A DNA stretch of 62,104 bases from a virus (Duplodnaviria > Caudoviricetes). A model generated the notes under the pieces. It was given only the letters and a program-made list of their open reading frames with translations. It was not told the DNA's origin and made no database searches. Position 1 is the first letter of the stretch. Every line of letters begins with the position of its first letter. Of this stretch, positions 23,647 through 56,622 are shown in pieces. A program made the position numbers and the translations under genes. Location of the stretch: positions 1-62,104 of the IMG/VR virus record IMGVR_UViG_3300003690_003506; one strand, given 5' to 3'.

Positions 23647-24910
23647 AACATTTCGCACCGCCGGCGGCCTTCCATTGGAAGACTTCTTTGAACACAGGCC
23701 CATAGAAGATGAAAACTTGGTTCCGGCAGTCGACCCTCGACGTGATAATACTACAACACAACTGCGCACTGCCTTACACGCGCTGAGAACGCCAAAAGAC
23801 GGGTTTGTTTACGAAGGTGTTGTTATTAATGTTTATCCTTCAAATACGGCTGCCTATGTGAAAAGAGGGCAAGCCTTGAATATGAAAGCAATCACAAGAA
23901 ATCTGATGAACCCACAAAGCAATTTTAAACTTCCTATTGACACTGAACCATCTATCAATGTATATAAGGTTTTTATGAGAGGAGATGCAAAGCCATTTCC
24001 GTGTGGCCCAAACGATCCTATTATATATACTTATCCGGAGATTCTTGCTCATGAAAGTCTCCGAGACAAAGAACCATTTTCAGTTGGAACCATCGTTGAA
24101 CTCGACGATAAAAAGCAATCAACCATAGTTAATTTTTATCCTGGCGCGGTTCCCATTCAATGGAAAGATAAATCTAACAAGAGGTCTCTGTTTAAAAATA
24201 AGACGCCTGTTACGGTCGACGCCGTAGTTGACCGGCCTGCTACTGGTACTCGCGCCGCTCGCAGGGAAGCCTCGCGCGCCGCCGCCCGCGCAGCCGCTCT
24301 CGCCGCGAAATCTGGCATTCGAAAACAAATATTTGAAGAGAATAATTATACTTTGAAGCTTAGGCATAATCATACCGGCGTGAGATCAAATGCTATTCTT
24401 AATAAAACACATCAAGTAGCTTTGAAAGCCAAACATCAAAGTAAAATCAAATCTGTAACGAGGGAAATGAGAATGCGAGTAAAGACCCTAGAAAAGATTT
24501 TCTTGAAAGAAGGCGGCACATTTGACCCTTATGCCATAAATAATAATACAAATGCGACAGGGTTGATTCAGTGGATGCCATCCACAGCCCGGGCCTTCGG
24601 GATCACCACCGATGAGTTACTGAAGAAGGGGCCAGACTTTCAGCTAGATCAGGTACTGAAATATTTTAAAAAGAATAAGGCGCAGAGACCTAGCAGTAAC
24701 TGGGAAGAGGTAGACTGGTATTTCATTGTTTTTTATCCGAGTGCCATTGGAAAGAAAGACGACTATGTGATCGGGTACACCGGTAAGACTAATGCCGAGA
24801 GAGCCGAGAGAGCAACGTACACCGCCTCCGTTAATAAGGGATACATAGATCCACACCATCCTCGCGGATGGATCACGCGCCGCTCAGTGAGAGCGGCATG
24901 GATGAGGTGA
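23639..24910 (+). CDS. Putative baseplate hub protein with C-terminal lytic transglycosylase/lysozyme-like domain
   Basis: KEGG.FDPYAIN...ATGLIQWMPSTA...QLDQVLKYF...YFIVFYP; sits at the start of the baseplate module. Confidence 0.7.
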   Translation: MTETFRTAGGLPLEDFFEHRPIEDENLVPAVDPRRDNTTTQLRTALHALRTPKDGFVYEGVVINVYPSNTAAYVKRGQALNMKAITRNLMNPQSNFKLPIDTEPSINVYKVFMRGDAKPFPCGPNDPIIYTYPEILAHESLRDKEPFSVGTIVELDDKKQSTIVNFYPGAVPIQWKDKSNKRSLFKNKTPVTVDAVVDRPATGTRAARREASRAAARAAALAAKSGIRKQIFEENNYTLKLRHNHTGVRSNAILNKTHQVALKAKHQSKIKSVTREMRMRVKTLEKIFLKEGGTFDPYAINNNTNATGLIQWMPSTARAFGITTDELLKKGPDFQLDQVLKYFKKNKAQRPSSNWEEVDWYFIVFYPSAIGKKDDYVIGYTGKTNAERAERATYTASVNKGYIDPHHPRGWITRRSVRAAWMR

Positions 24911-24936
24911 CGTCATGAGGAAGGTATAAATAAAGA

Positions 24937-26001
24937 ATGGGCGGAAAAAGAAATAATAAACTAATCGATACACAGCTGATGTCAGATCGAGATAAGGCTG
25001 TCTACGACGCGCTCCCGGCTGATGAAAAGTTAATTTGGCTCGGCTTTGGCATAGGCGAACGACGCAATTTTGATGTGCCTGAATTTAATAAGTTGCCTTG
25101 GGAACAGGTTCACCAGAAAGGAAATGCTTTTATAACCTTAGGATTGGATCGAAACGGCGACGAGACTTCTGGTTTTGGGGCCCAAGGCGCTACACATTGT
25201 GGTGCAGTGGATATCGTCGCCGGCCGCAAAGGGTATCTCGCACGCAAACGAAGAAAAAGGAGTGGCACTATTAGAATTGTGGATAATGATTTTGTTCTTG
25301 ACGCCGCGCGCCTATATCTTAGTCAAAGAGCTGATCCTGATGGGTATTTCCGAATAATGCCAGGGAATGTGGGAAATACAAGCGACGAGGAGCCTCGTTC
25401 TGCTGCCGTACTTAAAGCAGATGCTGTAAGAATTGTCGGACGTGAAAACATTAAATTAGTAACAAGAACAGATATAATGAATTCTCAGGGAGGAATATTA
25501 ACAAATATGATTAAGGGTTCATATGGCATTGATTTAATGGCAATGAATGGTGCTGGGGGCCAGCAGCCCCTAGTAAAGGGCGATAACCTTGTGGAGCTGT
25601 TAACCGTTTTGATCCAGCTTATTCAGCAGCTGGCGTCGACATTCACAACGTATGTGTCAGAAACCAGAAAGTTTCAGACTGCCTTAATAACGCATGATCA
25701 TTTGGCTCCATTTTTTGGTAATATGACTGCTCCAGATTTCCGAAACAACATTCCCACAGGGATAAACACCTTGATTAATAATGTCTGCAATGTTGATGTA
25801 GGAGCCCGTACCACCCAACTGGCCCTCAATCAGCTGATATTTGAATATTTGAGCTCTCCCGGCGGCGCCGAATTTGGTGAAAGCGGCGGCGGCGTTGGGA
25901 ATCATGGACATGTGGATGATGAAGGTGAGCCCGGGCATAAACACCAACTGAGCCCCGGCCCCACCAGAAATATATTAAGTATTTACAATAGTACTAACTA
26001 A
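24937..26001 (+). CDS. Putative baseplate central spike protein
   Basis: Beta-strand-like DAARLYLSQ and LKADAVRIVGRENIKLVT, QPLVKGDNL, and a THDH (HxH) motif. Confidence 0.5.
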   Translation: MGGKRNNKLIDTQLMSDRDKAVYDALPADEKLIWLGFGIGERRNFDVPEFNKLPWEQVHQKGNAFITLGLDRNGDETSGFGAQGATHCGAVDIVAGRKGYLARKRRKRSGTIRIVDNDFVLDAARLYLSQRADPDGYFRIMPGNVGNTSDEEPRSAAVLKADAVRIVGRENIKLVTRTDIMNSQGGILTNMIKGSYGIDLMAMNGAGGQQPLVKGDNLVELLTVLIQLIQQLASTFTTYVSETRKFQTALITHDHLAPFFGNMTAPDFRNNIPTGINTLINNVCNVDVGARTTQLALNQLIFEYLSSPGGAEFGESGGGVGNHGHVDDEGEPGHKHQLSPGPTRNILSIYNSTN

Positions 26002-26013
26002 TGGACAACGATA

Positions 26014-29000
26014 ATGTCTAGCCCATCTGATTATTTTTTAAGCGGTCACGTTGCTAATAAAACCGGGTTTCGGTCTAAAAAGCGGAATATTCCATTTTAT
26101 AATCCTCACGACGAGACAATAAAAGTAAAAATAACTTATGATGAGTTTGCAGATCCTCAAGATTTTCTTGGCAAAGTTAACGGGGTTACAAACAAGCTAG
26201 TAAATCGCTTTATTCTACATTATTATCCTGAATTTTATCCGTACTTACAGGACGCGAGTTACACGTCAGGCATTGCAATTTTGGATGATGCCTTCACCGA
26301 CATAAAGAGAATGTTTAAAGAGTCTCTAGAAGCTGGCAGCTTAATATACTATGTACCACATGACCCTTATTTAAAATCACAGAATAAACATATGGTTTTG
26401 GGAAGCATTTCATCCTTTACATATGATTTGCTGCCTTGTGATGTTCGCACTCTGAAGAAAAGATCTCTGCTAGCTTTCACAGCTAGAATTTATGCAAAAA
26501 TTCAAGTAATGACGGTACCGGCCCCGGGCGACACACTAACTTTTACTACTCGGTCACCTCTGGAAATAAGAGAACTATTGGAATTGGCAAACAGAATGCC
26601 CAGTTGGGATTCGGCCTTGTCTCTTTTTAATCAGGATCAAAAGATAACTAATCCAAATGATCAAACAACAATAGTAATCGGTGGGTTGATGGAAAATAAT
26701 AACCTTATGAACGATGGTTTATCATCTTTCCAATCAGAAATAGCAGGATTTGGGGGGTTGTTCCCCCTACCTATTGATTTTAATGCAATCCAGAAAAGCA
26801 TGATGTTCATTCTTAATGTGACAATTTTAAAATCTATTGTAGAAGAACTGACTGATATTGGTGTCAAAGGCTACACCGGCCGTTCTAAATTTACGGAATT
26901 TGGAGATGCTGACTCAATTACTATATATTTTGGTAAAAAAAGACGTCCTGGTCCTCCACCGCTCCCGTCGGAAACTGCCATTGGTCGGATTACTTATGTT
27001 GTAAACGAAGAGGGCCCCGAAGAAAATGTTTTAAAGACCGGTTATATGACAAATGTCAAATATAACAAAGAATTTCAAGACCCACTGACTCTCTCCACCC
27101 TTAAAAACTATGAATATCTACTTCAACGTATGCGTCTAGCTGCCATTGATCCCAATGGCCCTCCGTTTTCGTTTACAGAGTTTATAACTGATTCCTCTGG
27201 AGATTTTGGATTACCGGCGGATTTTACGCTGGATGAGTTACCAGCACCAGCCCCACCGGTAAAAAATGCATTCCTTAAGCAAGCGGTAGAGATGGGGTTA
27301 GTCGACCTTAAGGATACACAGGCTCTAGAAAAAGGTTTTGTTGAATCTATGTCTCCGGCCGAGATGAAGAAACTAAGACAGCAAGTAAGACAAAATCCAG
27401 AAATTTTTAAAAAGGTTTTTGAAGCCAACAAAGCAAAAGCACTCAAGACAGGGCAAAACGTTGCAAAAGGGATAGCAGCCGTTTTAAATGGCGACATCCC
27501 GGGCGGTAAAAAGAATAAAAAAGCAGCTTTATTATTGAGATCTCTTGGAATCGACGAAATAGCCAAAGAAGCTATGATCTGTGCCACTTTGGGGATGGCG
27601 CCCTCGATGGCCAGAATTGCCCAGGCCGCCGCAAATGCGATGCAGACAGTTGGTCAACGCAATCTTCCGTCGCCGGGGATGCAGATAAATATCCAGCCGT
27701 ATGAAGTCCCTGATCACCCGGACTCGGCCGTCAAAATACCACCGATCGATATTAAAAAGATTTTTAAGACTTTTACTATTGATGGAGATATGTGGAAAGA
27801 GATATTAAAAATTATGCTCGACAGTCTCCAGGAAATGGTTATGGAAATTGTTAAGGGCCTCGCCGAGCTACTGAAGGATTTGTGTGAATTAGCTAATCCC
27901 TTTGCCTCAGACTTCGGTGAAAATGATCTTGCAGACTTGGTCCAAGACAATCTAACCGACGATGCTGCGAATCTTCCAAATATTTCTAATCCGTCCGCAT
28001 TGGATCAATTGTTTGAAAGAGATAACATGACTTTTGACGACGTCATGAAATATTTCAGAGATTTATCGGCAATACTAAGTTCAATGGAAATTTGCTTTTT
28101 GTTTACGGATCGTGATGAAGTTTCGTATGATACGATGGAAAAAATATTGGACTTTAATGCAGCATATGGAGATGTGCATATTAGAAATACTCTTAATAAT
28201 TATGGAGCGGTGATGGGATTTTTTGCGAATCTATCGCGCTTTGTTGATTTTTCAGATTTTTGTAATAAGATAGCCAGCGACTTAGTCCATTTGAATCATG
28301 ATAATCTTTGTTTATTGGAGGTAAAAGCTCCAGATGCTATAGCTGATATCTTGAGTAATATAGCAGATGGTATCAAACTTGATCAGCCAAAGATTAATTT
28401 AGATTGTCCTTTGCGCCCGGGTTTTATCAAAAATCCTTTGGTCAGCGATACAATACCAGATTTGATAAATACAATTGTAAGAGTGGTTGAAATGGAGTTT
28501 ACCAATTCTATTAGTTCGGTCACTCAGATTCTTAAAGAGCCGACAATTGTTACGAACAAGGATGCGGATGGAAATATAGATCCGGCTATGAAAAAAATCA
28601 TGGACGCGCTGGCGGCTGTCCGCGACGGCGATGAGGATCCCTATTCCGAAGTGCGCAAGCCCCCGACTGACGCCACAAAGGCCGTTTTAACGAAAATCAA
28701 AGAAGCCTTTGCTGAGATCCCACTCATGGATACTAGCAACCTCCAGGAGACGTGTAATATTGACCTGACACAGGCCTTTGGAGTCGAAGTAGGTGCCGTA
28801 CAAGGTGTCTTGAATATGATTATTACCATCCTTGATGAACTTCTATCGGATCCAGAATTTTTATCAGCAATAGGCGATCTTGAGGATATGCTCGGCCGTA
28901 TGAGCGGCGACCCCGACGATTCCGCCGCACCACCAGTAACAGCAACAAAAACCTTTCAGTTCCCCAGGAAATATAAGAATGAGTTTACGAATTATATGGG

Positions 29001-32000
29001 TACCCCAGACCGAGGCGCCTTAAGCACCAGCTTCAGCGTATATACTTTCGAAATCTCGAGGGCGAACAAATTTAGTTCTAAAGCGAGTTTCAGCTACCAG
29101 AATGACTCCTTCGACAAGCTGGAGCTTAAATTTAGATTTGGTCGATCACAAACTCGACCCAGGTGGGCGCCCTTCAATCCGCCGCGGTCGAACAACGTGA
29201 CGTACACACTTCCTGATGGCACCTCGGGTAGCTATGCAATCCCGGGTTATGAGTTGCGGGCCCCGGGCAGCGACAGCACTGAAATGGTAAAAATTAAATA
29301 CGAGCCCCACACCGGTGCCAGCTACGGCACCGATCGGGGCAGAATTCAAGTTAACCTTAGTTCAGATTTAATTCCGGGCGCTGGCAATATAAGTGCGTTT
29401 AGCTTTTCTGCTCCTGATACCAGCGGCACTGGCCAGGGTGGGAATTATAATCCGACGATCGTGGACATAAATCAATATGTTGATATTTTCGCTGCAGCGC
29501 TGGCAGAAAATCTTAGGTTCGACCCGGGCCCCGGGCCACATCCCCACGACTTTGTCGGCGACGCCTGGGAACGCATTACTCTCCAGGATTTTGATGCGCC
29601 CACCGTCACAGGTATTTCGGCCACCCCCGAGGAAATCAAGAAGGAGATCGTCGGCATATTGTTTCCTGCAGCTTTTGCTGGGATGGTCGAATCAGCTTTT
29701 GATTATATCGAAGCAAACGGTATCTTTGATATGGAAAGATTAAATGCAGTGAACTTTTTCCATGACAATAGGAATTGTATACCAGATAACGTGGCCGATT
29801 TCTTAGATATAGATGGTATTTTGGCAATACTAAAAGATGAAATGTTGGACGCACTTTGTTATGATGAGGACAAAGAAGATTTAAATCCAATGGGGGGTAA
29901 GATAAGGGATGTTATTCGATACGGGCTTTTCTTGTTATTGACTCAAATTCATATAGCCCAATTCTTGATCAAAAATATATTTGTTCTCTCGGCATTCAAA
30001 GTAGAAGATATTATGGCATCCCAGATGATAACAGATTTACTAGCAGTAACAGTTCGCGATCAAATGACGGCATTCTTGCAAACAGAACCAGTTATAGGGC
30101 ACCAGATGGTTCAATATTTTAGCAAGAAGGCCAAGAGACCATCAATTGTTTCTAAAGGCGGCTTTGAAGATAGGGCGGGAAATATGGTTTTCCCAGTGGC
30201 CACACCCACAACAAATATGCAGGATTTCAATTTTGAAGATTCTTTTGATGGATTTAGTATTAGTGATTTTCCTGCAATTATTGAATATGTCACTAAATTA
30301 CGAATGTCTGATTCAAAAAAATCTGTGTCTAATGCCATGAAAAGGTCGAGCGCAATGACTCCTTCAAAGTCGGTTGATAAAATCTTTTTAGAAAACATTC
30401 TTACAGTACAGCCTATGTGGTTCGGAGACCTTACTCCTGAATTATATATAGAGGATGGCCAACACAATATTGTGATGCATCAACCCGCCATCACCAACAA
30501 CAGCTGGAAGACAGTCCTGCTCCGAGAGCGGATTCAGGGTGATTGGGCACAGCAGGCCACTTTCGGGAAGCTCGTCTTGGAAAGAGTGGTTGTTTGGGAT
30601 TCTGCGTGGGTCACCTTCGCGACAGGCGGCGAGCCTCGATCGGCCGCCGGCGTGTCCTGGGCGCCACTCGCCGGCGCCAACAATGGATTAGAAATTAGTT
30701 TGTTTAATCACGCTTTAGGTATTGAGGGTGCCGCGATGGTGCACTGGAGTACCAACGAAGCCCATACTGCCCGGGATTTGCTGAGCAGCGACGATCGAGA
30801 CTCGTCGTCCGGAATTAGCTTTTTTGGCCTAGGCATAAGACATCGTATAGTATATTATTTACCCGGCACCGAACACGACCAGCCGGGCGAAGACTTATTT
30901 TATAGAGATTACAGCGACGAGCTTCATCCATCCCAACGCCACGATTCGTTGGGTCTACGTAGGGTTGTTATAGCAGATCTCGGTACTCTAGTATCATTGG
31001 GGGATAAACAGACTACAGACCCAGCCTTCGCAGAGGATATGCTATATTATAATTCATCAAAAATTCGTGGGAGCGAAATTAGTCAAATTAGTACAGATCC
31101 CGTGTATCAAGAACTTTTTGGGAAGACGTTTAACAAAGAATTGATTATGCTTATTCCTATAATGTATAATTTCTATCTTACAAATGCTCATTTCTCCGAG
31201 ATAGACGATCGTTTCAGGGCGCCCAAGTATCGTTGTCTTCAAATATTTAAAGATAGTGTACGTGACGAAAATAATTTTAGCAGCCCTGTTCCGGATCCTG
31301 CGGGAGCAAAGCGCTTGGGAGCAATAGATCCAGAAGATCCTCTTCTTGATTTAGGATTCTCAGCATTGGACTTTATATTAAAAATGCTTATACAAACACC
31401 AATTAAAATTTTTAAGGGGGTATCTGAAATAATAGATCCGCACGTTGCAATATCTAAGATAGTTAAAGATGTTTCCGGCGCGGCCTTTAATGAGCTTGCT
31501 AAAGTTATCGACGCAGCTCCTCCGGTCATCGCGTTGCGTGAGCCTATACCACACCCTCGCCGCGGGCAGCCTCCTGCTAATGATCCCGAAGGCGAGCCGA
31601 TTGAAGAAGACGCAACACTCCCGGCAATTGCACCAGCCATCACCGGCGAGGGTATTCTTTCCTTCCTCTTATGTATGATTACAATAGGAATGAAAGAAGG
31701 TCTTGAAGATGTATCTCCAACTCCGCCCGGTTGGCACAAGGCCCTGGAAGATGGAATTCTTTATCCAAAAATTAATATAAAAGGTGTTGATTTCCTCGGC
31801 ACATTACCGGGAATGTTTATGGCACCTCCGTTTGTGTTTGGTATAATATATTTGCTATTATCACTACTTATGAAAGAAGTGGAGGATGATCTTAATGATT
31901 TGAGAGACGATGTACCGCCAATGTCGCCGCCGGCTGATGATGGTCTTAATCCACCTGGATCCAGCGCCTGCCCTGATCCAGTGGCCACCACCCTTAGTCC

Positions 32001-32043: not shown

Positions 32044-32047
32044 TTAT
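32040..32047 (+). promoter_or_regulatory. Candidate late promoter motif CTAWTTAT
   Basis: CTAATTAT 17 nt before the ATG at 32065. Confidence 0.4.
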
Positions 32048-47665: not shown

Positions 47666-48685
47666 ATGGCAGAGTTTTTTAATAAAAAAGAAGAGATGTT
47701 AGAAGTCCAGCTCACTGAGTATGGGAAATATTTATTGTCTATGGGCAAGTTGGATCCCGCTTATTACGCTTTTTTTGATGATGAAATCTTGTATAATTCG
47801 GAATATGCCGGTATAAAAGGCGCGGCCGCAGAGGCCCAGAACAATATCGATCGTAGAATTAGGCATGAAACACCGAATTTGAAGATTGTTCCAACTAGAA
47901 CAGGCGCAGAAACTCGCGTAGAGCGATTTATAAATAGCGTTAGTGGTGCATTAGCCAGTTCTAATTCAGAGCCGTCTGAAAATGCAGAAGCATTTCAACA
48001 GCAATATTTTATCGAAAAAGTTAATTTCTCGTCTTTTCCAATTGGTACTGGCGACATGACGAGCGACAAGAATGCATCCTGGTCGATCAACGCATTAAAG
48101 AATACTATTTCTGGCTCTAAAGAATATATCGTAACAAATCCTAGCAGCAGCTTTGCTGATATAAATAATGGTGTTATAAAAAGAATCCCTCAGCTTGATA
48201 TTGACATAAATTATCAAACTTTCTTTCAGAAGGGAGATTTTTCTGAATTTGCAATAAGTGATTATTTAGGTGCAGCTGGAGAAAATATATATCTTTCTTT
48301 ATATGAAGATTATTTAGTGTTGGAGATAGTAGAAGAAAACACTGTTTTTCAAAAGGAAAATTTTGATGTAGAGGTTTATTATGTTGGTGTTACTGCTTCT
48401 CTTAATCCTGCGTTTCCCGCGAATGACGCTCGACAACCAACGCAAAGGAGTGTTTTAAAACAAATGTCTTTTGTTAAAGAAGATCCTGGCACGTTCGCGG
48501 CGCCCAAGAAAATCGGGAATATGGAAACAAATATTGGAGACGTTGAATACTATTTTGATTTATATTTAGATGACGATATACCTTTTGATATAGCCGACGC
48601 AGCTAAAATTTCTGATATGGGCTTGAGTAGGTTTAAGCTGAATAGAGATTTGTATGTGAGCGAACCAGATGAGGACCCGTGTTAA
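47666..48685 (+). CDS. Putative virion structural protein
   Basis: N-terminal QLTEYGKYLLSMG..YYAFFDDEILY resembles the N-terminus of 56672..57652. Confidence 0.6.
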   Translation: MAEFFNKKEEMLEVQLTEYGKYLLSMGKLDPAYYAFFDDEILYNSEYAGIKGAAAEAQNNIDRRIRHETPNLKIVPTRTGAETRVERFINSVSGALASSNSEPSENAEAFQQQYFIEKVNFSSFPIGTGDMTSDKNASWSINALKNTISGSKEYIVTNPSSSFADINNGVIKRIPQLDIDINYQTFFQKGDFSEFAISDYLGAAGENIYLSLYEDYLVLEIVEENTVFQKENFDVEVYYVGVTASLNPAFPANDARQPTQRSVLKQMSFVKEDPGTFAAPKKIGNMETNIGDVEYYFDLYLDDDIPFDIADAAKISDMGLSRFKLNRDLYVSEPDEDPC

Positions 48686-51645
48686 TGAAACTAACAAAAG
48701 ATTTATTTAATGGCTGTTTGCCACTTCTTCTTATAGAAAAAGTACAGATTCTTCCAACCGATGACGCCGCTTCTAAACAAAGAGTAGACATCACCTTATC
48801 AATACAGAAGCGAGCAGATGCCAAAATTCTTCCTTATAGAATCTTTACGGCATGTTCTTACACTTTGAAGCCAATTCAGAAAATGCTTAATAATGCATTG
48901 ATTGCAAAAGATTTTATTCGAACACCAACCCGTGGCCAGAAGACTGTTCAAAAAGAGTATTTAAAACTAGAGGCCAAAGAAGGCGATTTTGATGAACCAG
49001 GCGTCGCTGCAGATAATTCCCGTATTGTAAAAAAATCTCTGACATTTACAAAAGATTTTGACTCTGACAAGGTTAACAATCTTTATTTATATGCTGTGGC
49101 CTATGCTATTGATTCCAAATCAGACAGCAAGTCCGGCATCGATGGTACAATTGCTAGTATGCTCATCGGTAAACCGGCTGTTGAAACAATTATATCAAGC
49201 GGGAAAACCCCAAATGAGAGTGTTATTTATAAACTTGATGCCGACGTTGTAGGTCAAGGCAAAAAAGGGGATATTTGGGTGGGCCCTACCAATGTAATAA
49301 ATGGTGATGTTGTAACTGCCACAGAAACTCCGGACACAGTGCCGGTATCTTTGGTGCCAATTCGTGTTTCCAATCAGAAAATGCAAGACATGAGATTTCT
49401 TAATGCTGCTGAAAATTTACCATTTAATAATACCACTAACGGGTCTCGAAAAAGTCAAAAAGATGCTGAAGTAATTAAAAAAATATTTAAGACATCTGGC
49501 GCGATATCTGATGCACACTATTCAAGAACTAGAAAAAGTTTAAATATTTTATTTACCATAGACCGTATCACGCTAGCTAGACAAAATACAAAGTTGGGAT
49601 ATTTGATGCTTAATAATACTTCTCTGGGTAGTTGTTTGAAAATAGAAAATATACGAGTTTACAGGACCAGGATTGAGCCAAATGTAAAAGCAAACGAACT
49701 AACTCCGGGAAAAATAAGCGTATGTGGATCGAATACCCGTATTTCAACAGATAAACTTGTAGCAACGTTGCGAGATGGCGGTGTTAAAGCAACTGATCTC
49801 GGTACCAGAACAGGGCCCGCAATGAGCTTGATAATTACAGATGGTAGTATTTCAAGTGACAATATGGGAACACACGAATATACAATATTTTTAGAGATGA
49901 TTGATTATTCAACTAGTGCTATAGCGGAGATTTCCGACACATTAACAACTTTATTATCGCGATACAGTAAATTTGTAGACAATATTGAAATTGGGGGACG
50001 TTCAGCAAAGGGTGCCAACTTTAAAATTTATTTGAAGGCCAAGAAAATTTCGATCAAAGAAGAAAGTAAAGACTGGCAAAGACTTATAGATTATTATTTA
50101 ACGGCCGTTCGTTTTATTTTTGGATCACAACCCTTTAATAGATATTCCCAGATAACATGGAGAAAAAATTTATTAGCTATGGTAAATCCTGATAATGGAG
50201 ATATGAAATCTATTCTAAAGGTTAGAGAAATAATAACCAATTTTAATACAAATCTTATGAGAATGTATAAGGGTTCCACCATGGGGGGTGCTGAGGATAA
50301 TTTTAAAGTTACTTCTAAGGGTGGCAGCACCGCAGCCGGTAAAAGAATAATTGGATTAGAACACACATTTTCTTCTAAATATGTTAAAAATAGTTCTGAC
50401 GAGGAAGGAATGGATTATCTGGATATGTCGTTATCCAAGCCAAATCCTGGTAATTTTACAAACATACCGCTTTCGGGCTTTGATAGAAGAATTGCTGCCG
50501 AGGTAAAAAAATATGGTGTAGGGGATCCAGATAGCGTGGGGGTCAATAAGTATGGATATCTTAGTCCAAAAAGAGTACATGTAAAAGGTAACGTAGTTGA
50601 AACAGATACAAAATACTTTCCCCAAGAATCCGGAAATGGCATATTAAAATCCAATATAGGCCCTGGTAAAATAGGTTTGCATTCTCCCTCTAGCATATCA
50701 GATAAAGTCTACACGTCAGAAATGGATTCTTTATTGAATTATTCCGATGTTTCTATTGTACCTCTTAAAAAGTCAATTGGTAAATTACTTCAAATTCCCA
50801 GAGTTAAGATTGTAAAAGCTGATTTGGACTCTACTTCCTATTTCTCAAATAATTCACCATTTAATAAAGACATAGAGGATAAAAAAACCGCCATTAGTGG
50901 TTCTTCTGAATTAAATATAAAAACGGATAGATCGCGTGAAGAGGAAATACTCAAATCAGATGTGGCCAAGACTATGACAGATTCTTTATCTGTTGGTTTT
51001 AAGAGATCAAAAGTTGTGATAGACGACGACGACACAGCACCATCACTTGCCGCACAAGCCTTAAAGGCTGATTCTGGATTAGTGATTGAAAATAACAATT
51101 TTGAAAATGCAATGAATTATAATTCAATAGCAAAAATTCAATATTTTGATGGATTTAAGTCTCAAAACGGAAAAGTAAATATTAATGAGCCACGCTGGAA
51201 GACTCTAAATAAGGGGAAGATTGATAGTCTTAAATCCAATGGTGATCGCGTATTGTGCAGAACTGTTTTGATAAATAATATGGTAGATATTCCGAATAAG
51301 TATACATTACCAGAATATGATTGTTTATTTGTGTTGGGTGATAAGCCGCCTGCCACAAAAAAGATTAATCCCCCAACATATAAAACTTTATTAGAGACTT
51401 CACTAGGAAGTGCTAAAAAGCAAGCTAAAAATGTAGCATTAAATATAGAAAGCGGCGCCACAGCAGAGGTCGATGTGTCTTATGCAATATCTCCCCTTCC
51501 GGGCCGAGCCACTCCGGCGCGCCCAGGTGGCGTAACCAAAGGTGGCAGAGGCGGTAGCACTCCCACTGGTGGCGGTAGTGTGCCTGGAGGCGGCGGCGCT
51601 CCCGGTGGGGGCTCAATGCCCAGTGGTGGCGGAGCAGATTATTAA
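48685..51645 (+). CDS. Hypothetical virion-module protein with Gly/Pro-rich tail
   Basis: ATG at 48685 overlaps the upstream TAA; ends in GGGSVPGGGGAPGGGSMPSGGG. Confidence 0.65.
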   Translation: MKLTKDLFNGCLPLLLIEKVQILPTDDAASKQRVDITLSIQKRADAKILPYRIFTACSYTLKPIQKMLNNALIAKDFIRTPTRGQKTVQKEYLKLEAKEGDFDEPGVAADNSRIVKKSLTFTKDFDSDKVNNLYLYAVAYAIDSKSDSKSGIDGTIASMLIGKPAVETIISSGKTPNESVIYKLDADVVGQGKKGDIWVGPTNVINGDVVTATETPDTVPVSLVPIRVSNQKMQDMRFLNAAENLPFNNTTNGSRKSQKDAEVIKKIFKTSGAISDAHYSRTRKSLNILFTIDRITLARQNTKLGYLMLNNTSLGSCLKIENIRVYRTRIEPNVKANELTPGKISVCGSNTRISTDKLVATLRDGGVKATDLGTRTGPAMSLIITDGSISSDNMGTHEYTIFLEMIDYSTSAIAEISDTLTTLLSRYSKFVDNIEIGGRSAKGANFKIYLKAKKISIKEESKDWQRLIDYYLTAVRFIFGSQPFNRYSQITWRKNLLAMVNPDNGDMKSILKVREIITNFNTNLMRMYKGSTMGGAEDNFKVTSKGGSTAAGKRIIGLEHTFSSKYVKNSSDEEGMDYLDMSLSKPNPGNFTNIPLSGFDRRIAAEVKKYGVGDPDSVGVNKYGYLSPKRVHVKGNVVETDTKYFPQESGNGILKSNIGPGKIGLHSPSSISDKVYTSEMDSLLNYSDVSIVPLKKSIGKLLQIPRVKIVKADLDSTSYFSNNSPFNKDIEDKKTAISGSSELNIKTDRSREEEILKSDVAKTMTDSLSVGFKRSKVVIDDDDTAPSLAAQALKADSGLVIENNNFENAMNYNSIAKIQYFDGFKSQNGKVNINEPRWKTLNKGKIDSLKSNGDRVLCRTVLINNMVDIPNKYTLPEYDCLFVLGDKPPATKKINPPTYKTLLETSLGSAKKQAKNVALNIESGATAEVDVSYAISPLPGRATPARPGGVTKGGRGGSTPTGGGSVPGGGGAPGGGSMPSGGGADY

Positions 51646-54434
51646 TGAGCGCTCAAAACCCAGACTTTAAAGTTAAGACACGGTATATAAATTCTGACTT
51701 GAAGAGCGTTGCTCCCTCGGAGGTTTTGGGAAACAGCGAAGGTTCATCTCACCTGTGGCTAAGACATTCCTGGGGGACTTCCGACAGGTTTCGTGGAATA
51801 ACAGGAAATTCTTTGTATTTCTATCAAGGGCGCCTCCTAAATTTTAGAGACCTGGAACCCGGGTTCCATAGCCAGATCGTGGGTTTCCCCCTCGAAATGA
51901 TTGAGTTGCCTGGCGGATCCGCACAAGGCACCAGTGGCGGCGGTAGTGGGTATAACAGTTATACATCTCATTATCTGATTCTCCCTAACCATATATACTG
52001 GAAGGCCGGCGTTGTCAATCCAGATCTCCCGGGGGTTGTTCTAGATACATTACTTAAAGAAATTCAAATACTTCCAGGCCTAGACCAAGGGGATCCATAC
52101 TGGAAGATGTTTCTGAAAGATGGTATAGACAACACCGACAGTCGCTTCTTCGGCGTCGTCGACGGCGGAACGAAATGGGATCCAATTTTTAATCACCTTA
52201 ACAATAACGATTATTTTAACGACTTTACTTATAGTTATTTAAGGCCGTCGAATGATGAAAAAATTCGAAAGAAAAGCGGCATGGATGTCCGTGTTGATTC
52301 GGTTTATAACTTTTATTTAGATACGACTCCTCCATACGAAGACGCGATTAAAAATGTATCAGACTCACTGATTACGAATTTTTATTGTTTAGAATCCGAA
52401 CTTCGAAACACTGGGTCTACTTATAATTCTCAAGACTACTATAATCAAATTACATTAGAAAATAACTTAGGGTGGTTTGTTGTTAAAGATCTTGGAGTTG
52501 GAGGCCTCACCGAGGAGCAACGACGTCAGATCGCGCAAGCCCAGGCAAGCTATGCGGCCGGCCAGTCCGCCGCCGTCGAGGGCGAGGTCACCTCGATGGG
52601 CATGGAAGAGTTCGTCCCAGCGGTCCAGGCCGGCGGCTCGCAGCAACCCGAATGGTTTAACAATATTCAAGGAGGAGTTAATTCCTATAATGAGTCAACT
52701 ACCGCTGAGTTTTATAGTCTTTATAGTAAGGGTATTGGTGGCGCCGCATCGTCGCAAGACTTAGTGAACAGCATGCTCACAAAATATAAAAATATGGTAA
52801 TTTTATGCTCTGATCTTGATATGTTAAGCGATTTAGCAGTAAGAGATGATGATACCTCTGGGGTATCAAATCTTCCATTTTATAACAAGATAACAATTGG
52901 TGTGAACGACGACGATATTACTGGCGGCGCGCTCACCGTGCTTCGAGACGCCTACCGAAATCTCGAAGGGGGCTCCTTCTTCAAAAATCTATTGGTCCTT
53001 TTCGGTCTTGGTCAACAAGATCTCGATCCTGCCTTCGTCCCCGCTACCATATTAGACATAATCCAAATGTATATAATTCAAAAAATTGAAGGCACTGGGC
53101 CGTTCACTGGCGGTGGTGACCAAGACTCTCTTAATTTTGCAAAGTCGGTACGTACGCCGACAAACTCGGAAAACGCTAGCCTAGCGCAGAGCAGCCAGGG
53201 AGTCAATGAAACCTCGGTAGTTTCCTTTTCGTGGAGGGAATTTATGGAAGATATCCGCAACCCCACGGCCCGGGCACAAGTTATAACGCCTCTTATTAAC
53301 AGAATAAACAATAATGTAACTACTGGCGACGACAATTTTATTTTATTAAGAAACTATAATGAAGGATTGGCCATTGCAGACGATACCTTTCTTGAAACTC
53401 TCAGAACCCAGGCAGGTTCCAACCACATACACTTTCCCACAAGAACCTATGAACAAATATTGGCAAACGAAGATTGTTATAGCGAGCCTATATTATATAA
53501 AATTGATAAATATAGCGTTCAACCGTTGACGACCGGAACCACACTATCGCAAACGTTTTATATTAGTGCGCGCGGCGAGAATTGGGAACCTAGGCCGATA
53601 ACTTATATCGATTCGCAGGTTAAATATGGTGTAGAATATAGATATGATATTAAACAAATAAGGATGGTATTTGGAAATAGTTATGGTTATAGAGATCTTC
53701 AGGCCGACAATACACTTATCGGTGGCCGCGGCAAACAGGTAGCAAATTCTTTAGGGTTTTATAGGCCTACAGATCCTAACACGCATTTCGATGATTACGT
53801 TGAGGCGCAGTACGGCGTGCGCGCAGGACCAGACTACACCGACAGTGATCGGGACAGCTCCGACGCGTTGCTCACCGTTGCTCCACCCAACCCGAACCTC
53901 GGCCCCGGCTTCCGCGACCTAGGTGATAAGACTTATTTGCGAGGGAATTTCGTATTTAAGCAAAGACAGCCCGGAGAGACTGGCGGCTCACCGTGGCGCC
54001 TGCAGTGGGCTGGTGGTGAGCATTCGGCCCAGGAATATTATGATGTATTAATGGATCAGGGTACCCGGCCCTGGCGCGGACAGCCAGGAGGCCAACATTC
54101 TCTCAGTTTTACTTCCGCCGTACTGCAGAATATGTTTATTAGGATCCACGAGGCGGCCGGTTCGTATGCCGGTGGAGCTGTTGCGTCTCACGTTAATTGG
54201 TCTGCGTTAACATGGCCAGCGGCGATCACACCGCCGCCAACAGGACCACCGCCGGCCACCTCCCCACAGCTCGGCGACGCGGGCTTCACCGGTGACGACG
54301 ACGATCCAAATACGTGGTGGGATGAGAGCCGATACGATCAAGAGGAACAGCATCAGCAGGCAATAGACAATGAGATGATCCCCGGCGGCGGTACCGGCGG
54401 CGGTGGCGGAGGCGGTGGCGGAGGCGCCTCGTAA
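51645..54434 (+). CDS. Hypothetical virion-module protein with poly-Gly tail
   Basis: 929-aa ORF with an FN3-like YIDSQVKYGVEYRY strand and many GC-rich patches. Confidence 0.65.
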   Translation: MSAQNPDFKVKTRYINSDLKSVAPSEVLGNSEGSSHLWLRHSWGTSDRFRGITGNSLYFYQGRLLNFRDLEPGFHSQIVGFPLEMIELPGGSAQGTSGGGSGYNSYTSHYLILPNHIYWKAGVVNPDLPGVVLDTLLKEIQILPGLDQGDPYWKMFLKDGIDNTDSRFFGVVDGGTKWDPIFNHLNNNDYFNDFTYSYLRPSNDEKIRKKSGMDVRVDSVYNFYLDTTPPYEDAIKNVSDSLITNFYCLESELRNTGSTYNSQDYYNQITLENNLGWFVVKDLGVGGLTEEQRRQIAQAQASYAAGQSAAVEGEVTSMGMEEFVPAVQAGGSQQPEWFNNIQGGVNSYNESTTAEFYSLYSKGIGGAASSQDLVNSMLTKYKNMVILCSDLDMLSDLAVRDDDTSGVSNLPFYNKITIGVNDDDITGGALTVLRDAYRNLEGGSFFKNLLVLFGLGQQDLDPAFVPATILDIIQMYIIQKIEGTGPFTGGGDQDSLNFAKSVRTPTNSENASLAQSSQGVNETSVVSFSWREFMEDIRNPTARAQVITPLINRINNNVTTGDDNFILLRNYNEGLAIADDTFLETLRTQAGSNHIHFPTRTYEQILANEDCYSEPILYKIDKYSVQPLTTGTTLSQTFYISARGENWEPRPITYIDSQVKYGVEYRYDIKQIRMVFGNSYGYRDLQADNTLIGGRGKQVANSLGFYRPTDPNTHFDDYVEAQYGVRAGPDYTDSDRDSSDALLTVAPPNPNLGPGFRDLGDKTYLRGNFVFKQRQPGETGGSPWRLQWAGGEHSAQEYYDVLMDQGTRPWRGQPGGQHSLSFTSAVLQNMFIRIHEAAGSYAGGAVASHVNWSALTWPAAITPPPTGPPPATSPQLGDAGFTGDDDDPNTWWDESRYDQEEQHQQAIDNEMIPGGGTGGGGGGGGGGAS
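54383..54426 (+). repeat. GGN trinucleotide low-complexity repeat (poly-Gly)
   Basis: ggcggcggtaccggcggcggtggcggaggcggtggcggaggc. Confidence 0.7.
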
Positions 54435-54449
54435 AAAGAAAATAAGAAA

Positions 54450-55175
54450 ATGCAAGAAAAAGAATTTGAATATATAAAAGGAGCTGCAAGAACTAATATA
54501 CCGTGGTTTCGTCCGCAAGCGCACCGGCTAAATTTATGGAAAGAAGAGTTCTTCAAAATTCCAGGCGTAGATAAATATAAGTTTTGGATTTGCGGGGGCG
54601 CCCTGGAGAACTGGAAATCTTGGGATACTGACATACTTGTTACTGGAAAAGTTACATCATATATGGAATTGCAAAATATTATGGTATCCGCTACTCAACT
54701 TGGGCTTGATCTTAGACAATTAATTGATATTAATTGGAATGATTCTTTAGAAAAATATTTAGAAAAGGGCCCTTGCTCTCGGCGAAGTATATGTTGCGAT
54801 CATTTTTTTAGATACGAGTGGTGCAACATTGAACATTGTTTAACTGAAATGGATTTTGAAACGATTATTATAAGCCCGACAACCATAAAAAATGGCGCAG
54901 TCATCGGTAGAAAAAAAGATCCAAACCCTATACAGCTGGCTTCATCTTTATGGAAAATTGCTATGAATAGGGGCTATAATGTACTTCCATCAAAAAAACA
55001 GGCAAAAAGAATAAAAAATGGCATTATTTATAAAGGAAGACCGACTTTGTTAACATACGATTTGGATTTTAAAACAATTATCCCCCCGGATCATCGGCGC
55101 CAAGACCTTTTCTTGAAGGAATCTCGGCCACAACGCGCAGTAACGCCTGCTTGGTTGGATTCTCTAGGAAATTAG
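54450..55175 (+). CDS. Putative Pol-beta-superfamily nucleotidyltransferase
   Basis: WICGGAL....WDTDILV plus a later LIDI fits the hGG..DxD..D signature. Confidence 0.55.
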   Translation: MQEKEFEYIKGAARTNIPWFRPQAHRLNLWKEEFFKIPGVDKYKFWICGGALENWKSWDTDILVTGKVTSYMELQNIMVSATQLGLDLRQLIDINWNDSLEKYLEKGPCSRRSICCDHFFRYEWCNIEHCLTEMDFETIIISPTTIKNGAVIGRKKDPNPIQLASSLWKIAMNRGYNVLPSKKQAKRIKNGIIYKGRPTLLTYDLDFKTIIPPDHRRQDLFLKESRPQRAVTPAWLDSLGN

Positions 55176-55176
55176 T

Positions 55177-56622
55177 ATGGCAAGTATTTATTACTATATA
55201 GATATTCAAGAACGGAACTATTATAGCGCCTCGGCGGTGATGATGTGGTATAGCCACCTGAACAGATATGAGCTCATGGATCCGGCGGGATCCCTTGCCG
55301 ACCCAAACGATGAGGGCGTCCCTGCTCTAGAAACTTTTTCAGTCGGCCCGATCGAGTTCCAGGATCAGGGGCAATATTCCATTGCTCAGTTCATGACCAA
55401 AATCAATGATGCTTTTACCACAGCGCTCCTCTACAGTGACGCACCAAGGCTATATCAGATTCAGATTCGTCCGCATGACCCAGGGAGTACTACGCCGGGC
55501 CCGGGCTTCCAGCCCATGCCACTCGGTAACAAATCCGGCGCCATGCTAACCGCCCTCACTGCCGCCCGCGCGAACGGTGAAATTTTAATAAATTATGACA
55601 TCTTCAATGAAGACCGCGTTACTTTTAAACTTTTGTTTCGTTCTGGAGAACACGGATCCAGCATTGCGTCAACTCCATCAATCCCGGCTGGAGGCGGCCG
55701 CACGGCAAATTCGCCACCTTGGGCCACCGTCAAAGTCAAAAATAAACTAAACATTGCCAAAGCTGTTGAAGTTCCGTATTGTTCAATATCCACCACAATT
55801 ACTGACAAACCCCCTGTCCCTCCTGATATATTATTTGTTCCCTATGTAGGCGTCAATAACAAAGTGTTAATTATGTTAAATTCTACTGCCGGCGAAAGAC
55901 TAGAGAAGCCAATTATATTGGACGATGATGACATAACGTTTATAAGAGAGGAGTACAACTCTCAGTACGGCATCGACGTCGGTCTGTTTACAGATGCCCA
56001 GCTCACCGCTGTAGATTTGAGTCTTGCCGCAGGCAAACTTTTGCAATATAGAAGCGACGACCCGGTAAAAAAATATGAAATATTTAGAGTTGATCGTAAA
56101 CCAACAAATTATCAAAGTTTTAAAGGTTTTCGAATTGCTCGAATTGAAGAAAAAATAGGCCCCGATAAAGCTTCTACTGCGGCTTCTTTTATAGACACAA
56201 TTCAGCCAAATAAAAAGTATTGGTATTGCGCCCGCGCAATTGACGTACACAACAATATCTCTAATCCAACTTATATTTTCGAAGTCGAGATGGTGGACAA
56301 TAGAGGACAAATGTATTTTATAAGCAAGCCGATTGCTTTTGATGCGCGGAAACTAGATTATAAGAAACAAGGCAGAAGGTACCTTGCTATTCGTCCGCAA
56401 GCATCTCAAACAACGTACGACCCCAATTCTGATCAGGCAGCCAATTTGGGTTCTGTGGCTATCGACCAGCCCCCAGGCGCCACCGCGGCAATTTTAGGAT
56501 TGGCGAGTATTGAAGATTCAATTTGGGAGAAAAAGTTCAAAATTAGAGTGACCAGTAAAAAGACTGGAAGGAAAATTGATTTAAACGTGACGTTTAAAAA
56601 TGATGGAGTTATCATTCCATAG
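55177..56622 (+). CDS. Putative virion protein with FN3-like domain
   Basis: DKPPVPP, YEIFRVD and FIDTIQPNKKYWYCARAIDVHNNISNP patterns. Confidence 0.6.
   Translation: MASIYYYIDIQERNYYSASAVMMWYSHLNRYELMDPAGSLADPNDEGVPALETFSVGPIEFQDQGQYSIAQFMTKINDAFTTALLYSDAPRLYQIQIRPHDPGSTTPGPGFQPMPLGNKSGAMLTALTAARANGEILINYDIFNEDRVTFKLLFRSGEHGSSIASTPSIPAGGGRTANSPPWATVKVKNKLNIAKAVEVPYCSISTTITDKPPVPPDILFVPYVGVNNKVLIMLNSTAGERLEKPIILDDDDITFIREEYNSQYGIDVGLFTDAQLTAVDLSLAAGKLLQYRSDDPVKKYEIFRVDRKPTNYQSFKGFRIARIEEKIGPDKASTAASFIDTIQPNKKYWYCARAIDVHNNISNPTYIFEVEMVDNRGQMYFISKPIAFDARKLDYKKQGRRYLAIRPQASQTTYDPNSDQAANLGSVAIDQPPGATAAILGLASIEDSIWEKKFKIRVTSKKTGRKIDLNVTFKNDGVIIP

Follow-up and report, generated by a model that had tools for sequence, protein, structure and literature searches.

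Short GC-rich patches interrupt the AT-rich structural genes of a 62,104-nt IMG/VR virus record (here "the window"; 40.1% GC, estimated 52% complete). A sequence-only reading had proposed that fragments of high-GC DNA, possibly from the host, are repeatedly captured in frame into variable loops of virion proteins. We asked whether the patches are imports or inherited parts of the genes that carry them.

GC-rich patches and their composition

The base counts behind the proposal were reproduced exactly; positions 52501-52650 contain 105/150 G or C and positions 52381-52500 contain 37/120. Among the other stretches listed, 10/11 have 57-75% GC, but 24590-24910 has only 49.5%. We called patches by running a two-state GC model on the window. 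The model returned 32 patches, covering 5096 nt, with a mean GC of 0.618 compared to 0.381 elsewhere. All 32 are inside + strand ORFs, in frame and without stop codons. The 3949-aa ORF, absent from the earlier list, has 11 patches, the 2009-aa ORF has nine and the 929-aa ORF has three. The 354-aa and 481-aa ORFs have two each, and single patches were called in the hub gene, in an epimerase gene and in the 510-aa, 988-aa and 326-aa ORFs. As previously noted, no patch was called in the gp25-like (32065-32457) or gp6-like (32478-34274) genes.

Shuffling codons within genes (n = 40) gave on average 7.7 patches covering 986 nt, and at most 14 patches and 2490 nt. Synonymous-codon shuffles, which keep the proteins (n = 40), gave on average 19.4 patches covering 2723 nt, and at most 25 patches and 3575 nt. 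The observed values exceed every one of the 40 codon and 40 synonymous shuffles. The GC-rich patches are real and not due to chance. Thus, the protein sequences account for about half of the patch signal and the remainder needs co-located GC-rich codon choice.

Compared to the backbone, Gly, Ala, Pro and Trp are doubled in the patches; Lys, Asn, Ile and Phe are depleted. Patch GC is 0.613, amino acids explain 0.533, and the backbone value is 0.393. Roughly two thirds of the patch GC excess is therefore accounted for by amino-acid composition. The rest is a real silent-site shift. Patch GC3 is 0.594, compared to 0.377 (sd 0.011, maximum 0.418 in 2000 draws) expected from the patches' own amino acids and late-gene codon usage. 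Because the patches were selected by GC, we added a selection-free test of GC12 against GC3. For 409 late-gene windows of 30 codons the correlation was r = 0.427, above all 300 synonymous shuffles (0.231 +/- 0.037, maximum 0.357). There was no excess in the first 23.6 kb (0.256 compared to 0.208 +/- 0.051 shuffled). Both tests agree with the earlier statement, made for 52501-52650, that amino acids alone do not explain the high GC.

Position of the patches within genes

All of the patches are described on the + strand; L006 and L007 are the two close strains. The epimerase patch (20385-20507; 67% GC, GC3 0.68) is outside the range given in the sequence-only reading. It belongs to the conserved core of the gene (19839-20849), which encodes a nucleotide-sugar epimerase, and is not a variable loop. 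Its peptide is 66-85% identical to 80 bacterial loci, and the best DNA identity among these is 77.6%. The baseplate hub/lysozyme-like gene (23639-24910) contains a sharp Ala/Arg-rich patch of 75% GC (24204-24307), upstream of an SLT-like domain, that includes a 12-nt unit repeated 1.9 times. No orthologue of this gene was found by blastp in L014, L015, L016, L017 or G001. In the 354-aa ORF, a Gly/Ala-rich patch (25155-25245) is conserved (72-76% amino-acid identity in L014 and L015). The second patch (25853-25965) includes a window-lineage insertion (25921-25959).

The patches of the 2009-aa ORF are associated with insertions or variable sequence. Insertions are included in the patches at 27591-27730 (12 codons, 27655-27690), 30726-30812 (30739-30768), 31509-31652 (Pro-rich; 31579-31611) and 31915-32004 (C-terminal, Pro/Ser-rich; 31936-31983). 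The patch at 29490-29632 is mostly a window-lineage insertion. Those at 28602-28684 and 28890-28934 (short) are within variable stretches, the former rich in indels, and the region at 29155-29340 differs in length in every lineage. The patch at 30484-30678 (GC3 0.74) is a conserved core motif with a variable surround. The Ala/Gly/Thr-rich patch of the 510-aa ORF (35181-35360) is conserved, with 56-59% amino-acid identity in L014 and L017.

In the 3949-aa ORF, the two-state GC model called patches at 36129-36277 (62% amino-acid identity in L017), 36706-36863, 39440-39483 and 38219-38278, the last with several differences in the covering contigs of runs X2, X4 and X5. The patches at 40387-40633 and 40981-41145 share one strain-variable stretch, where 2254 nt of the window (40121-42375) are matched by only 1315 nt in an X2 contig. 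The next patch (41491-41560), with a peptide identical in L007, adjoins a concanavalin-like lectin domain (Pfam Laminin_G_3, best stretch residues 1943-2090). The longest patch of this ORF (42182-42679, ~165-166 aa) has homologues only in five marine metagenome giant proteins. It is 82% identical to L006 at the nucleotide level, compared to 91% for its flanks, with a GC of 0.56/0.57 in the two strains. Three further patches are hypervariable. The first (43077-43210) has 68% identity to L006 and about 10% to L007. At the others (45708-45775 and 46471-46566; 43% and 69% identity to L006) all three strains differ.

The 988-aa ORF ends in a Gly/Pro-rich low-complexity tail (51452-51635; 88% identity to L006, GC 0.68/0.67). 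In the 929-aa ORF, the first patch (51851-51950; 69% identity to L006) is in part an insertion relative to distant relatives. The second (52500-52650; 70% GC, GC3 0.80), previously the type example, is a 50-codon clade-restricted insertion. It occurs in 3/38 aligned family members (the window, P0001 and L007) and also in L006, to which it is 72% identical (flanks 88%). The third patch (53804-54431) forms the C-terminal 209 residues and finishes with a tandem poly-Gly (GGN) array (54383-54426). Its alignment to L006 (65% identity) contains 69 gap positions and 27 inserted ones. In an AlphaFold2 model of this protein, conserved AT-rich parts mostly score 80-95. The pLDDT is 42-62 for residue blocks 281-340, around the 50-residue insert, which may only reflect the few aligned sequences in the insert columns, and 30-55 for the C-terminal patch (blocks 721-929). 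The 929-aa, 481-aa and 2009-aa proteins matched no family or fold.

The N-terminal variable region of the 481-aa ORF (55226-55577; 67% identity to L006) has an identical core between two hypervariable blocks. A short Gly/Pro-rich patch in the same ORF (55683-55729) is conserved (98% identity to L006). The patch of the 326-aa ORF (57339-57559) has 87% identity to L006 and is also conserved in distant relatives (47-66% amino-acid identity in L002, L008, L010, L012 and L013). Since several patches (20385-20507, 25155-25245, 35181-35360, 55683-55729 and 57339-57559) are not hypervariable, the patch class is mixed.

Divergence among strains and relatives

In the three strains, conserved blocks are about 96% identical and the patches are at the same places, GC-rich in all. 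Between the window and L006, identity is 0.733 in patches (2479 nt) and 0.910 in the rest (16460 nt), with gaps at 3.9% and 0.6%, respectively. The GC of L006 is 0.596 in patches and 0.401 in the rest. Across 210 windows of this strain pair, the Spearman correlation of GC with identity is -0.49. Blocks defined by divergence gave the same gradient: 96.4% identity and GC 0.384/0.385 for conserved blocks, 71.8% and 0.52/0.53 for intermediate blocks, and 35.8% and 0.57/0.62 for hypervariable blocks. The gradient was repeated in the other two strain pairs, and identity is at most 36% where the patches vary most. Silent sites behave similarly. In codons for the same amino acid, the fraction of four-fold sites that differ is 0.104, 0.258 and 0.52 for the conserved, intermediate and hypervariable classes, a five-fold rise from first to last; GC4 is 0.35, 0.42 and 0.63. 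Both patterns were repeated with L007. Judged from these alignments, the patches diverge far faster than the conserved backbone, at amino-acid and silent sites, with short in-frame indels.

Alleles differ by substitutions and small in-place indels, and peptide alignments retain residual homology. The patches are thus inherited and diversify in place. The strain and relative alignments bear out the expectation that patches fall where virion proteins are hypervariable or carry indels. Conversely, repeated capture as a working diversification route is not supported, because each of the three strains has homologous patches that can be aligned and are just as GC-rich; any captures are, at the least, not recent. 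The 57 variable runs comprise 21 in which every strain is different, 15 in which the window matches L006, three in which it matches L007, and 18 intermediate ones. Such discordant allele sharing is a hint of recombination in the patches.

We polarised changes by parsimony on the three strains, which is crude at saturated sites. With 950/2479 patch positions passing the alignability filter, there were 66 W>S and 72 S>W changes at all positions. This balance indicates no decay towards AT. Hence, the decay towards the AT-rich background expected of recent import is absent. Equilibrium GC at four-fold sites is 0.515 in patches (CI 0.41-0.62, 188 sites) and 0.368 outside (0.32-0.42, 1564 sites), the intervals just overlapping (0.408 and 0.415). 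Taken over all third positions, equilibrium GC is 0.564 in patches (0.515-0.609) and 0.387 outside (0.363-0.413). A broader "variable" class was not different (0.40 compared to 0.387). The silent sites of the patches are at or near a higher GC equilibrium, of about 0.5-0.56 compared to about 0.37-0.39.

The patches are best explained as the parts of the tail and baseplate proteins that evolve fast and are prone to indels, in an uncultured marine T4-like myovirus. We consider it probable (about 0.6) that they are inherited hypervariable loop, linker and tail segments, kept GC-rich by residue selection together with a putative local GC-favouring regime. Diversifying or relaxed selection would act on exposed, flexible segments of proteins that presumably contact the host, and alleles may be shuffled between strains through conserved flanks. 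The silent-site shift would reflect a process that favours GC locally. Candidate mechanisms are GC-biased repair or conversion where segments are prone to recombination, a lower rate of cytosine deamination where the duplex is locally stable, and an ongoing exchange of alleles from a GC-rich pool. Some of the sharpest inserts may go back to GC-rich DNA that was foreign, or that arose by slippage, in a clade ancestor.

More distant relatives bear on capture. Compared to 33%-identical relatives, many patches are clade-restricted insertions. We defined clade-restricted columns from the alignment only, as those present in a third or fewer of the aligned relatives. Their GC/GC3 is 0.61/0.59 in the window, 0.60/0.64 in L006 and 0.65/0.61 in L007, compared to 0.38/0.34-0.35 for conserved core columns. 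The same GC rise was seen in restricted columns of the 22.6-35.8 kb genes. Six more distant relatives have a weaker rise (0.46-0.53 restricted, 0.39-0.42 core). Relatives also have their own GC-rich inserts at other places. Patches make up 9-10% of the sequence in L006 and L007, but about 1% in each of L010-L013 and L016. In a cultured relative that infects a low-GC Flavobacterium, 41.8 kb contain a single weak patch.

These observations would fit the in-frame capture of foreign high-GC fragments, perhaps of host origin, by loops that tolerate inserts. Such capture could have been repeated and recent, or a single event per site in the clade ancestor. GC-rich DNA would pass more easily because it has few stop codons; by our arithmetic, a random 50-codon insert is open with a probability of about 0.28 at 65% GC and about 0.03 at 35%. 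Furthermore, the sharp edges and GC3 of the 52500-52650 insertion fit an inserted GC-rich fragment better than gradual enrichment in place. We nevertheless consider capture unlikely. Apart from the homology in all close strains and the lack of decay, the bacterial source whose search had been suggested did not emerge; searches of phage, viral, metagenome and bacterial collections gave no donor. In blastn searches of GenBank phages the patches had no match, their peptides matched only orthologous positions in relatives' loci, and two patches of the 929-aa ORF had no other context in IMG/VR. Random GC-rich DNA would, by our estimate, encode ~12% Arg, but Arg in the patches reaches 1.1 times its backbone level, compared to a doubling of Gly and Ala. 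The patches also differ little from the backbone in dinucleotide signature (mean difference 0.068). Thus, what survives of in-frame capture is the existence of clade-restricted, GC3-raised segments; fresh or ongoing capture of host DNA is not supported. Alignability across relatives, named in advance as evidence against capture, holds among close relatives but does not extend to distant ones.

Targeted GC-biased hypermutation or break-repair, acting on defined short virion-gene segments to give antibody-like variable loops, is improbable. It would account for the five-fold silent divergence, for the 21 of 57 runs that differ in all strains, for the raised equilibrium GC, and for within-gene identity that drops abruptly from 100% to about 40%. 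However, old selected alleles with recombination-homogenised flanks explain the same pattern. The changes comprise every substitution class and indels rather than one mutation type, and there is no strand asymmetry (GC skew 0.004). No candidate enzyme was found, with no reverse transcriptase in 3/3 records searched, all incomplete and not including L006 or L007.

Remaining alternatives and known systems

A purely compositional reading, in which the patches only reflect the GC-rich codons of Gly/Ala/Pro-rich linkers, is very improbable. Amino acids do explain much of the GC, and synonymous shuffles retain many patches, but this reading is contradicted by the GC3 excess, by GC4 at unchanged residues (0.63 compared to 0.35), by the patch census and by the GC12-GC3 correlation. 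Diversity-generating retroelement (DGR) targeting, or cassette-based gene conversion from silent copies, is barely credible. Short hypervariable segments of phage virion proteins are the DGR substrate, and the window covers only about half of the genome. However, no patch has a copy elsewhere in the window, or outside orthologous places in relatives' loci; allelic differences include indels and involve all four bases, at dozens of sites over at least ten genes, and no reverse transcriptase was found in the three incomplete records searched. The patches share no sequence with one another, and a mobile repeat family was rejected on that basis. The patches are not fresh host fragments, a mobile repeat family or DGR targets. 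Stitching of GC-rich reads from other organisms into this metagenome contig, where the poly-Gly array does attract unrelated GGC-repeat contigs, can practically be dismissed: the frame is kept in 32/32 patches, a separate Logan assembly of the probable source run (the same reads, hence not independent data) spans patches with contigs of 4958, 5104 and 7431 nt carrying 0, 0 and 4 differences, and homologous GC-rich patches occur in contigs of other collections and in a run from another study.

Elements of several known systems recur in the window. In bacteria, GC-biased gene conversion links recombination positively to GC content, independently of codon selection (Lassalle et al., 2015; PMC4450053). 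Such conversion would raise silent-site equilibrium GC in recombining segments, as in the patches. In that study the effect is described per gene in cellular genomes, whereas the window has 50-600-nt blocks inside phage genes, with recombination only hinted at by discordant allele sharing.

Two kinds of repeat family, the Rickettsia palindromic elements and the yeast mitochondrial GC clusters, have palindromic structure. Like the patches, both are short frame-keeping inserts inside coding sequence, and the yeast clusters are GC-rich islands in AT-rich DNA. Conversely, the patches share no sequence and 9/10 fold no better than shuffles (z -0.8 to +2.2; one at -2.4). The vls antigenic-variation cassettes of Borrelia are GC-rich in an AT-rich genome, with strong GC skew and gene conversion from silent cassettes. 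The patches are similarly GC-rich variable protein segments, but were found without cassettes and have almost no skew. DGRs act on hypervariable short segments of phage virion proteins, as seen here, but the patches vary at all bases and by indels, at many sites, and no template copy was found.

The T-even gp37/gp38 adhesins carry hypervariable segments of phage host-recognition proteins; in gp38, the conserved Gly-rich motifs are GC-rich, not the variable parts. In the literature searched we found no description of a compositional mark on hypervariable phage segments. As described, these adhesins and the "metaviromic islands" of marine phage populations resemble the window in having short divergent stretches, conserved flanks and strains that differ mainly there. 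The window differs from both in that its variable stretches have ~60% GC in a 38% GC backbone, silent sites included, and form dozens of micro-blocks over at least ten genes.

Composition of the GC-rich patches

The window is a virus record of IMG/VR (62104 nt, 40.1% GC), estimated to be about 52% complete. All of its long ORFs are on the + strand, and neither tRNAs nor Rfam families were found in it. Sugar metabolism dominates the first 22 kb: a dense block at 288–21714, unusually large for a phage, contains at least five glycosyltransferase-like ORFs, a HAD hydrolase, two nucleotide-sugar epimerases and a UDP-glucose dehydrogenase fusion (5257–7185). It could serve in glycosylation of the virion or DNA, or in altering the host surface.

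The late genes, also on the + strand, begin with a late sigma-like factor (from 22.6 kb on). They continue with a baseplate hub carrying a lysozyme-like domain (23639–24910), ORFs of 354 and 2009 aa, gp25-like (32065–32457) and gp6-like (32478–34274) baseplate wedge genes, a 510-aa ORF, a 3949-aa ORF with concanavalin-like lectin domains, seven more ORFs without a family match and, at the end, a RuvC-like resolvase and a primase. The closest cultured relatives of the gp6-like protein, from Microcystis phage Mel-JY01 and Flavobacterium phage vB_FspM_immuto, are only ~30% identical. The same or closely related sequence is carried by marine and hydrothermal-vent metagenome runs. At least part of 51000–56000 was found in 20 rows from 18 studies; besides the probable source run, only three had a share of 0.24–0.26, and the analysis used runs with a share of 0.2 or more.

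The sequence-only reading had described short, sharply bounded GC-rich patches in the late genes, absent from the gp25-like and gp6-like genes. Using a two-state model of GC, we called 32 patches (5096 nt in total; GC 0.618 vs 0.381), all in frame in + strand ORFs. The base counts of that reading were reproduced exactly, the edges at 52500–52650 were only a few bases wide, and none of the 32 patches fell in either wedge gene. Its list of patches mostly stood, 24590–24910 being weak (49.5% GC); 11 patches in the 3949-aa ORF were not on it, nor were those at 57339–57559 and in an epimerase gene (20385–20507). The epimerase patch (67% GC, GC3 0.68) lies in the conserved catalytic core and is not variable; the rest of the gene is 37–50% GC per 60-nt window.

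The patch load was higher than in every one of 40 within-gene codon shuffles, which averaged 986 nt, and every one of 40 synonymous shuffles, which averaged 2723 nt. Hence, about half of the signal comes from the protein sequences and about half from co-located codon choice. In patches, Gly, Ala, Pro and Trp are roughly doubled, and Lys, Asn, Ile and Phe fall to 0.3–0.5 times. The patch GC predicted from amino acids was 0.533 vs 0.613 observed, with the late-gene backbone at 0.393; residue composition thus accounts for about two thirds of the GC-richness. GC3 was 0.594 vs 0.377 expected, as anticipated from the claim that amino acids alone do not explain the patches. In 30-codon windows, taken with no selection by GC, GC12 and GC3 were correlated at r=0.427, where synonymous shuffling gave 0.231 +/- 0.037; no excess over shuffles was seen in the first 23.6 kb. 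In dinucleotide signature the patches differed little from the backbone (mean difference 0.068), and they showed no strand skew. By our estimate, random GC-rich DNA would carry about 12% Arg; Arg is not enriched in the patches.

Divergence between strains and insertions relative to distant relatives

Relatives of the 929-aa protein were one IMG/VR contig (G001, 90 kb, 33% identity) and eight metagenome contigs; four more IMG/VR contigs covered 21.7–36 kb. After clustering at 90%, only three other alleles of this protein are on record at 52% identity or more, and relatives beyond these are at 39% or less. Two metagenome contigs represent close strains. By blastn, L006 is 84–90% identical to window 41706–60644, and L007 is 87–92% identical in pieces, the breaks coinciding with patches. 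The alignment of a 9.4-kb contig from a metagenome run of another study likewise broke at patches (51916–52028, 53776–54039 and 55228–55575). A second contig from that run has only 1315 nt in place of 40121–42375 (2254 nt), beside the lectin-like domains of the 3949-aa ORF, which suggests that a module was swapped or deleted.

We divided the window–L006 alignment into blocks by divergence alone. Conserved blocks were 96.4% identical (GC 0.384), intermediate blocks 71.8% (GC 0.52) and hypervariable blocks 35.8% (GC 0.57 in the window, 0.62 in L006). The hypervariable blocks formed 67 runs, with a median of 20 nt and a maximum of 77, and the gradient of GC with divergence was repeated in both other strain pairs. 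When patches were instead defined by GC, they were 73.3% identical to L006 vs 91.0% elsewhere, with seven times more gaps, and GC in L006 was 0.596 in patches vs 0.401 elsewhere. Within a few bases, nucleotide alignments fell from 100% identity to GC-rich sequence that could barely be aligned, and rose again just as abruptly. The patches coincide with hypervariable stretches, strain divergence being concentrated in short stretches between conserved flanks. The peptides of divergent alleles keep residual homology; hence, the alleles are diverged versions of one segment and not unrelated fragments. For 57 variable runs in 18 kb, all three strains differed at 21, the window matched L006 at 15 and L007 at 3, and 18 were intermediate.

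Selection on residues alone does not explain the silent-site divergence of the patches. At four-fold sites encoding the same residue, the window and L006 differed at 0.104, 0.258 and 0.52 of sites in conserved, intermediate and hypervariable classes, where GC4 was 0.35, 0.42 and 0.63. The patch segments therefore have either an older coalescence or faster mutation. With older coalescence, alleles would have been long kept and their flanks homogenised by recombination.

Many patches are insertions relative to distant relatives. Of 38 aligned family members, only the window, P0001 and L007 have the 50-codon patch at 52500–52650; L006 has it too. In multiple alignments of eleven late genes, we defined clade-restricted columns as those occupied by a third or fewer sequences. 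Their GC/GC3 was 0.61/0.59 in the window, 0.60/0.64 in L006 and 0.65/0.61 in L007, vs 0.38/0.34–0.35 in conserved core columns. In 16 insertion runs defined by alignment and profiled across their edges, GC3 averaged ~0.43 in flanks and ~0.53 inside, with too much noise to distinguish a step from a gradient. In distant relatives GC rises less, chiefly at the first two codon positions, and these relatives have their own Gly/Pro/Ala-rich inserts at other places. Patch load is 9–10% of the sequence in L006 and L007, 5% in one further relative (L015) and about 1% in five others (L010–L013, L016); in 41.8 kb of a cultured Flavobacterium phage, a single weak patch was called. The patches are a mixed class: five are conserved Gly/Ala-rich stretches, among them the epimerase catalytic core.

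For the 929-aa protein, AlphaFold2 with 38 sequences gave a model of mean pLDDT 68 and pTM 0.68; pLDDT was mostly 80–95 in AT-rich conserved parts, 42–62 around the 50-residue insert (blocks 281–340) and 30–55 over the C-terminal patch (blocks 721–929). The low values fit flexible or poorly constrained segments, and the few sequences in these columns may contribute. Foldseek gave no match for this model in the PDB at E of 0.001 or better. An AlphaFold2 model of the 481-aa protein was too poor for use (mean pLDDT 45.7). Of possible relevance to exposure in receptor-binding proteins, a lectin-like domain was recognised in the 3949-aa ORF alone.

Whole genes also differ between relatives. An AT-rich 241-aa ORF (54450–55175) has 97% amino acid identity in L006 and was not found in L007 or six more distant relatives; this is therefore a presence/absence difference between close strains. 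For the hub gene (23639–24910), blastp at E below 1e-8 found no orthologue in L014–L017 or G001, where the neighbours on both sides do have one; the gene seems to have been replaced or to have diverged extremely between lineages. Two small ORFs in tandem share their first 16 residues, their starts being direct repeats of 48 nt at 61813–61860 and 62014–62061 (88% identical, spaced 201 nt); the pair is also present in G001 (locus L002, around 19067 and 19352).

Origin of the patches

The sequence-only reading proposed that fragments of GC-rich DNA, possibly from the host, are repeatedly captured in frame, as a diversification route and a clue to a GC-rich host. Of the features of horizontal capture, insertion relative to relatives was found, and an identifiable donor and compositional decay were not. 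Blastn of 51645–56622, 24100–32050 and 39800–47700 gave no match among GenBank phages, and two patches of the 929-aa ORF, as peptides, gave no donor in IMG/VR. A 165-aa patch matched only five marine metagenome proteins. When the 929-aa protein was searched exhaustively, no hit among the best 150 of 329 had its best stretch confined to a patch, and tblastn of patch peptides against the relatives' loci hit orthologous places only. The comparison with bacterial DNA, which covered the epimerase patch only, also gave no donor. A host conversion tract was rejected for that patch: its best nucleotide identity among 80 bacterial loci was 77.6%, with no outlier.

A recent GC-rich import under the backbone regime should show a clear GC-to-AT excess. 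The patches do not: by parsimony in three strains, over the 950 of 2479 positions that could be used, AT-to-GC changes numbered 66 and GC-to-AT changes 72, and the polarised changes gave no sign of decay towards the recipient. The equilibrium GC implied by changes at all positions was 0.47–0.68 in patches and 0.39–0.50 in the backbone. For all third positions it was 0.564 (0.515–0.609) inside vs 0.387 (0.363–0.413) outside, and for four-fold sites with unchanged residues 0.515 (0.41–0.62) vs 0.368 (0.32–0.42). The difference appeared only with stricter classes; polarised four-fold sites of a looser 'variable' class gave 0.40 vs 0.387. With no donor, no decay and homologous alleles, repeated capture is not supported as a current route. 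All that is left of the capture idea is a possible ancient origin for some of the sharp inserts, and host GC cannot usefully be read from the patches.

Tandem slippage is not the main source, since only 5 of 24 TRF rows (four short arrays) lie in patches. The clearest array, (GGN) at 54383–54426, gives the 929-aa protein a poly-Gly C-terminus, is shorter in L006 and draws unrelated GGC-repeat contigs when metagenome contigs are matched to the window. Nor do the patches resemble in-frame mobile mini-elements of the RPE or GC-cluster kind, having no similar copies and no palindromic or hairpin structure. All-against-all comparison of the 32 patches gave only 9–15-nt matches (E 0.014 or more), and comparison with the whole window a single off-site match of 21 nt (E 0.007). 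Of 10 patches selected for RNA folding (150 nt or less), nine folded no better than shuffles (z -0.79 to +2.18), the sole weak exception being at z -2.41. An assembly artefact is rejected, as a separate assembly of the probable source run spans the patches almost unchanged, its contigs of 4958, 5104 and 7431 nt crossing them with 0, 0 and 4 differences.

It is well supported that the patches are inherited segments of virion proteins, of hypervariable and insert kinds.

A probable local GC-favouring regime and known diversification systems

The GC-richness is only partly explained: the excess beyond residue composition is a local GC-favouring regime at silent sites, for which there are several candidate causes. 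The silent-site mark does not decay, and hence points to a local evolutionary force beyond residue selection. One candidate is that cytosines deaminate more slowly where the duplex is locally stable. Others are an old foreign origin, exchange of alleles drawn from a GC-rich pool, and GC-biased conversion in recombining segments, of the kind proposed for bacteria (PMC4450053).

We put at roughly 15% the probability that this phage clade has a localised GC-favouring diversification, by biased repair or conversion or by an unknown targeted mutator or insertion activity, acting on dozens of short, defined virion-protein segments to give antibody-like variable loops recognisable by base composition alone. 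In that case, the host-contact surfaces of an AT-rich phage could be marked out by local GC, from sequence only. Were the link general, a plain GC scan would find the fast-evolving surfaces of an AT-rich phage without relatives, and the silent-site pattern would be a natural test of GC-biased conversion in viruses. In a limited literature search, no account was found of hypervariable phage segments marked by GC. An anomaly of local GC within a phage gene need not mean host-derived DNA or reflect host GC.

Diversity-generating retroelements (DGRs) confine differences to template adenines and make no indels, whereas the patches show all substitution classes and many indels. A DGR is rejected: no template repeat (~90% identical, nearby) was found in the window (~52% of the genome) or the relatives' loci, and reverse transcriptase PF00078 had no match in three of three records (G000, G001, G002), all incomplete. 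Conversion of the vls type needs silent donor cassettes, and there were none in the window (about half the genome) or the relatives' loci. The patches share a feature with the hypervariable regions of phage host-contact proteins: the divergence of close strains is concentrated in short stretches (blocks of 96% vs 36% identity). Such hypervariable segments are known from phages; their probable counterparts in this clade bear a strong compositional mark, which includes silent sites and is not decaying.
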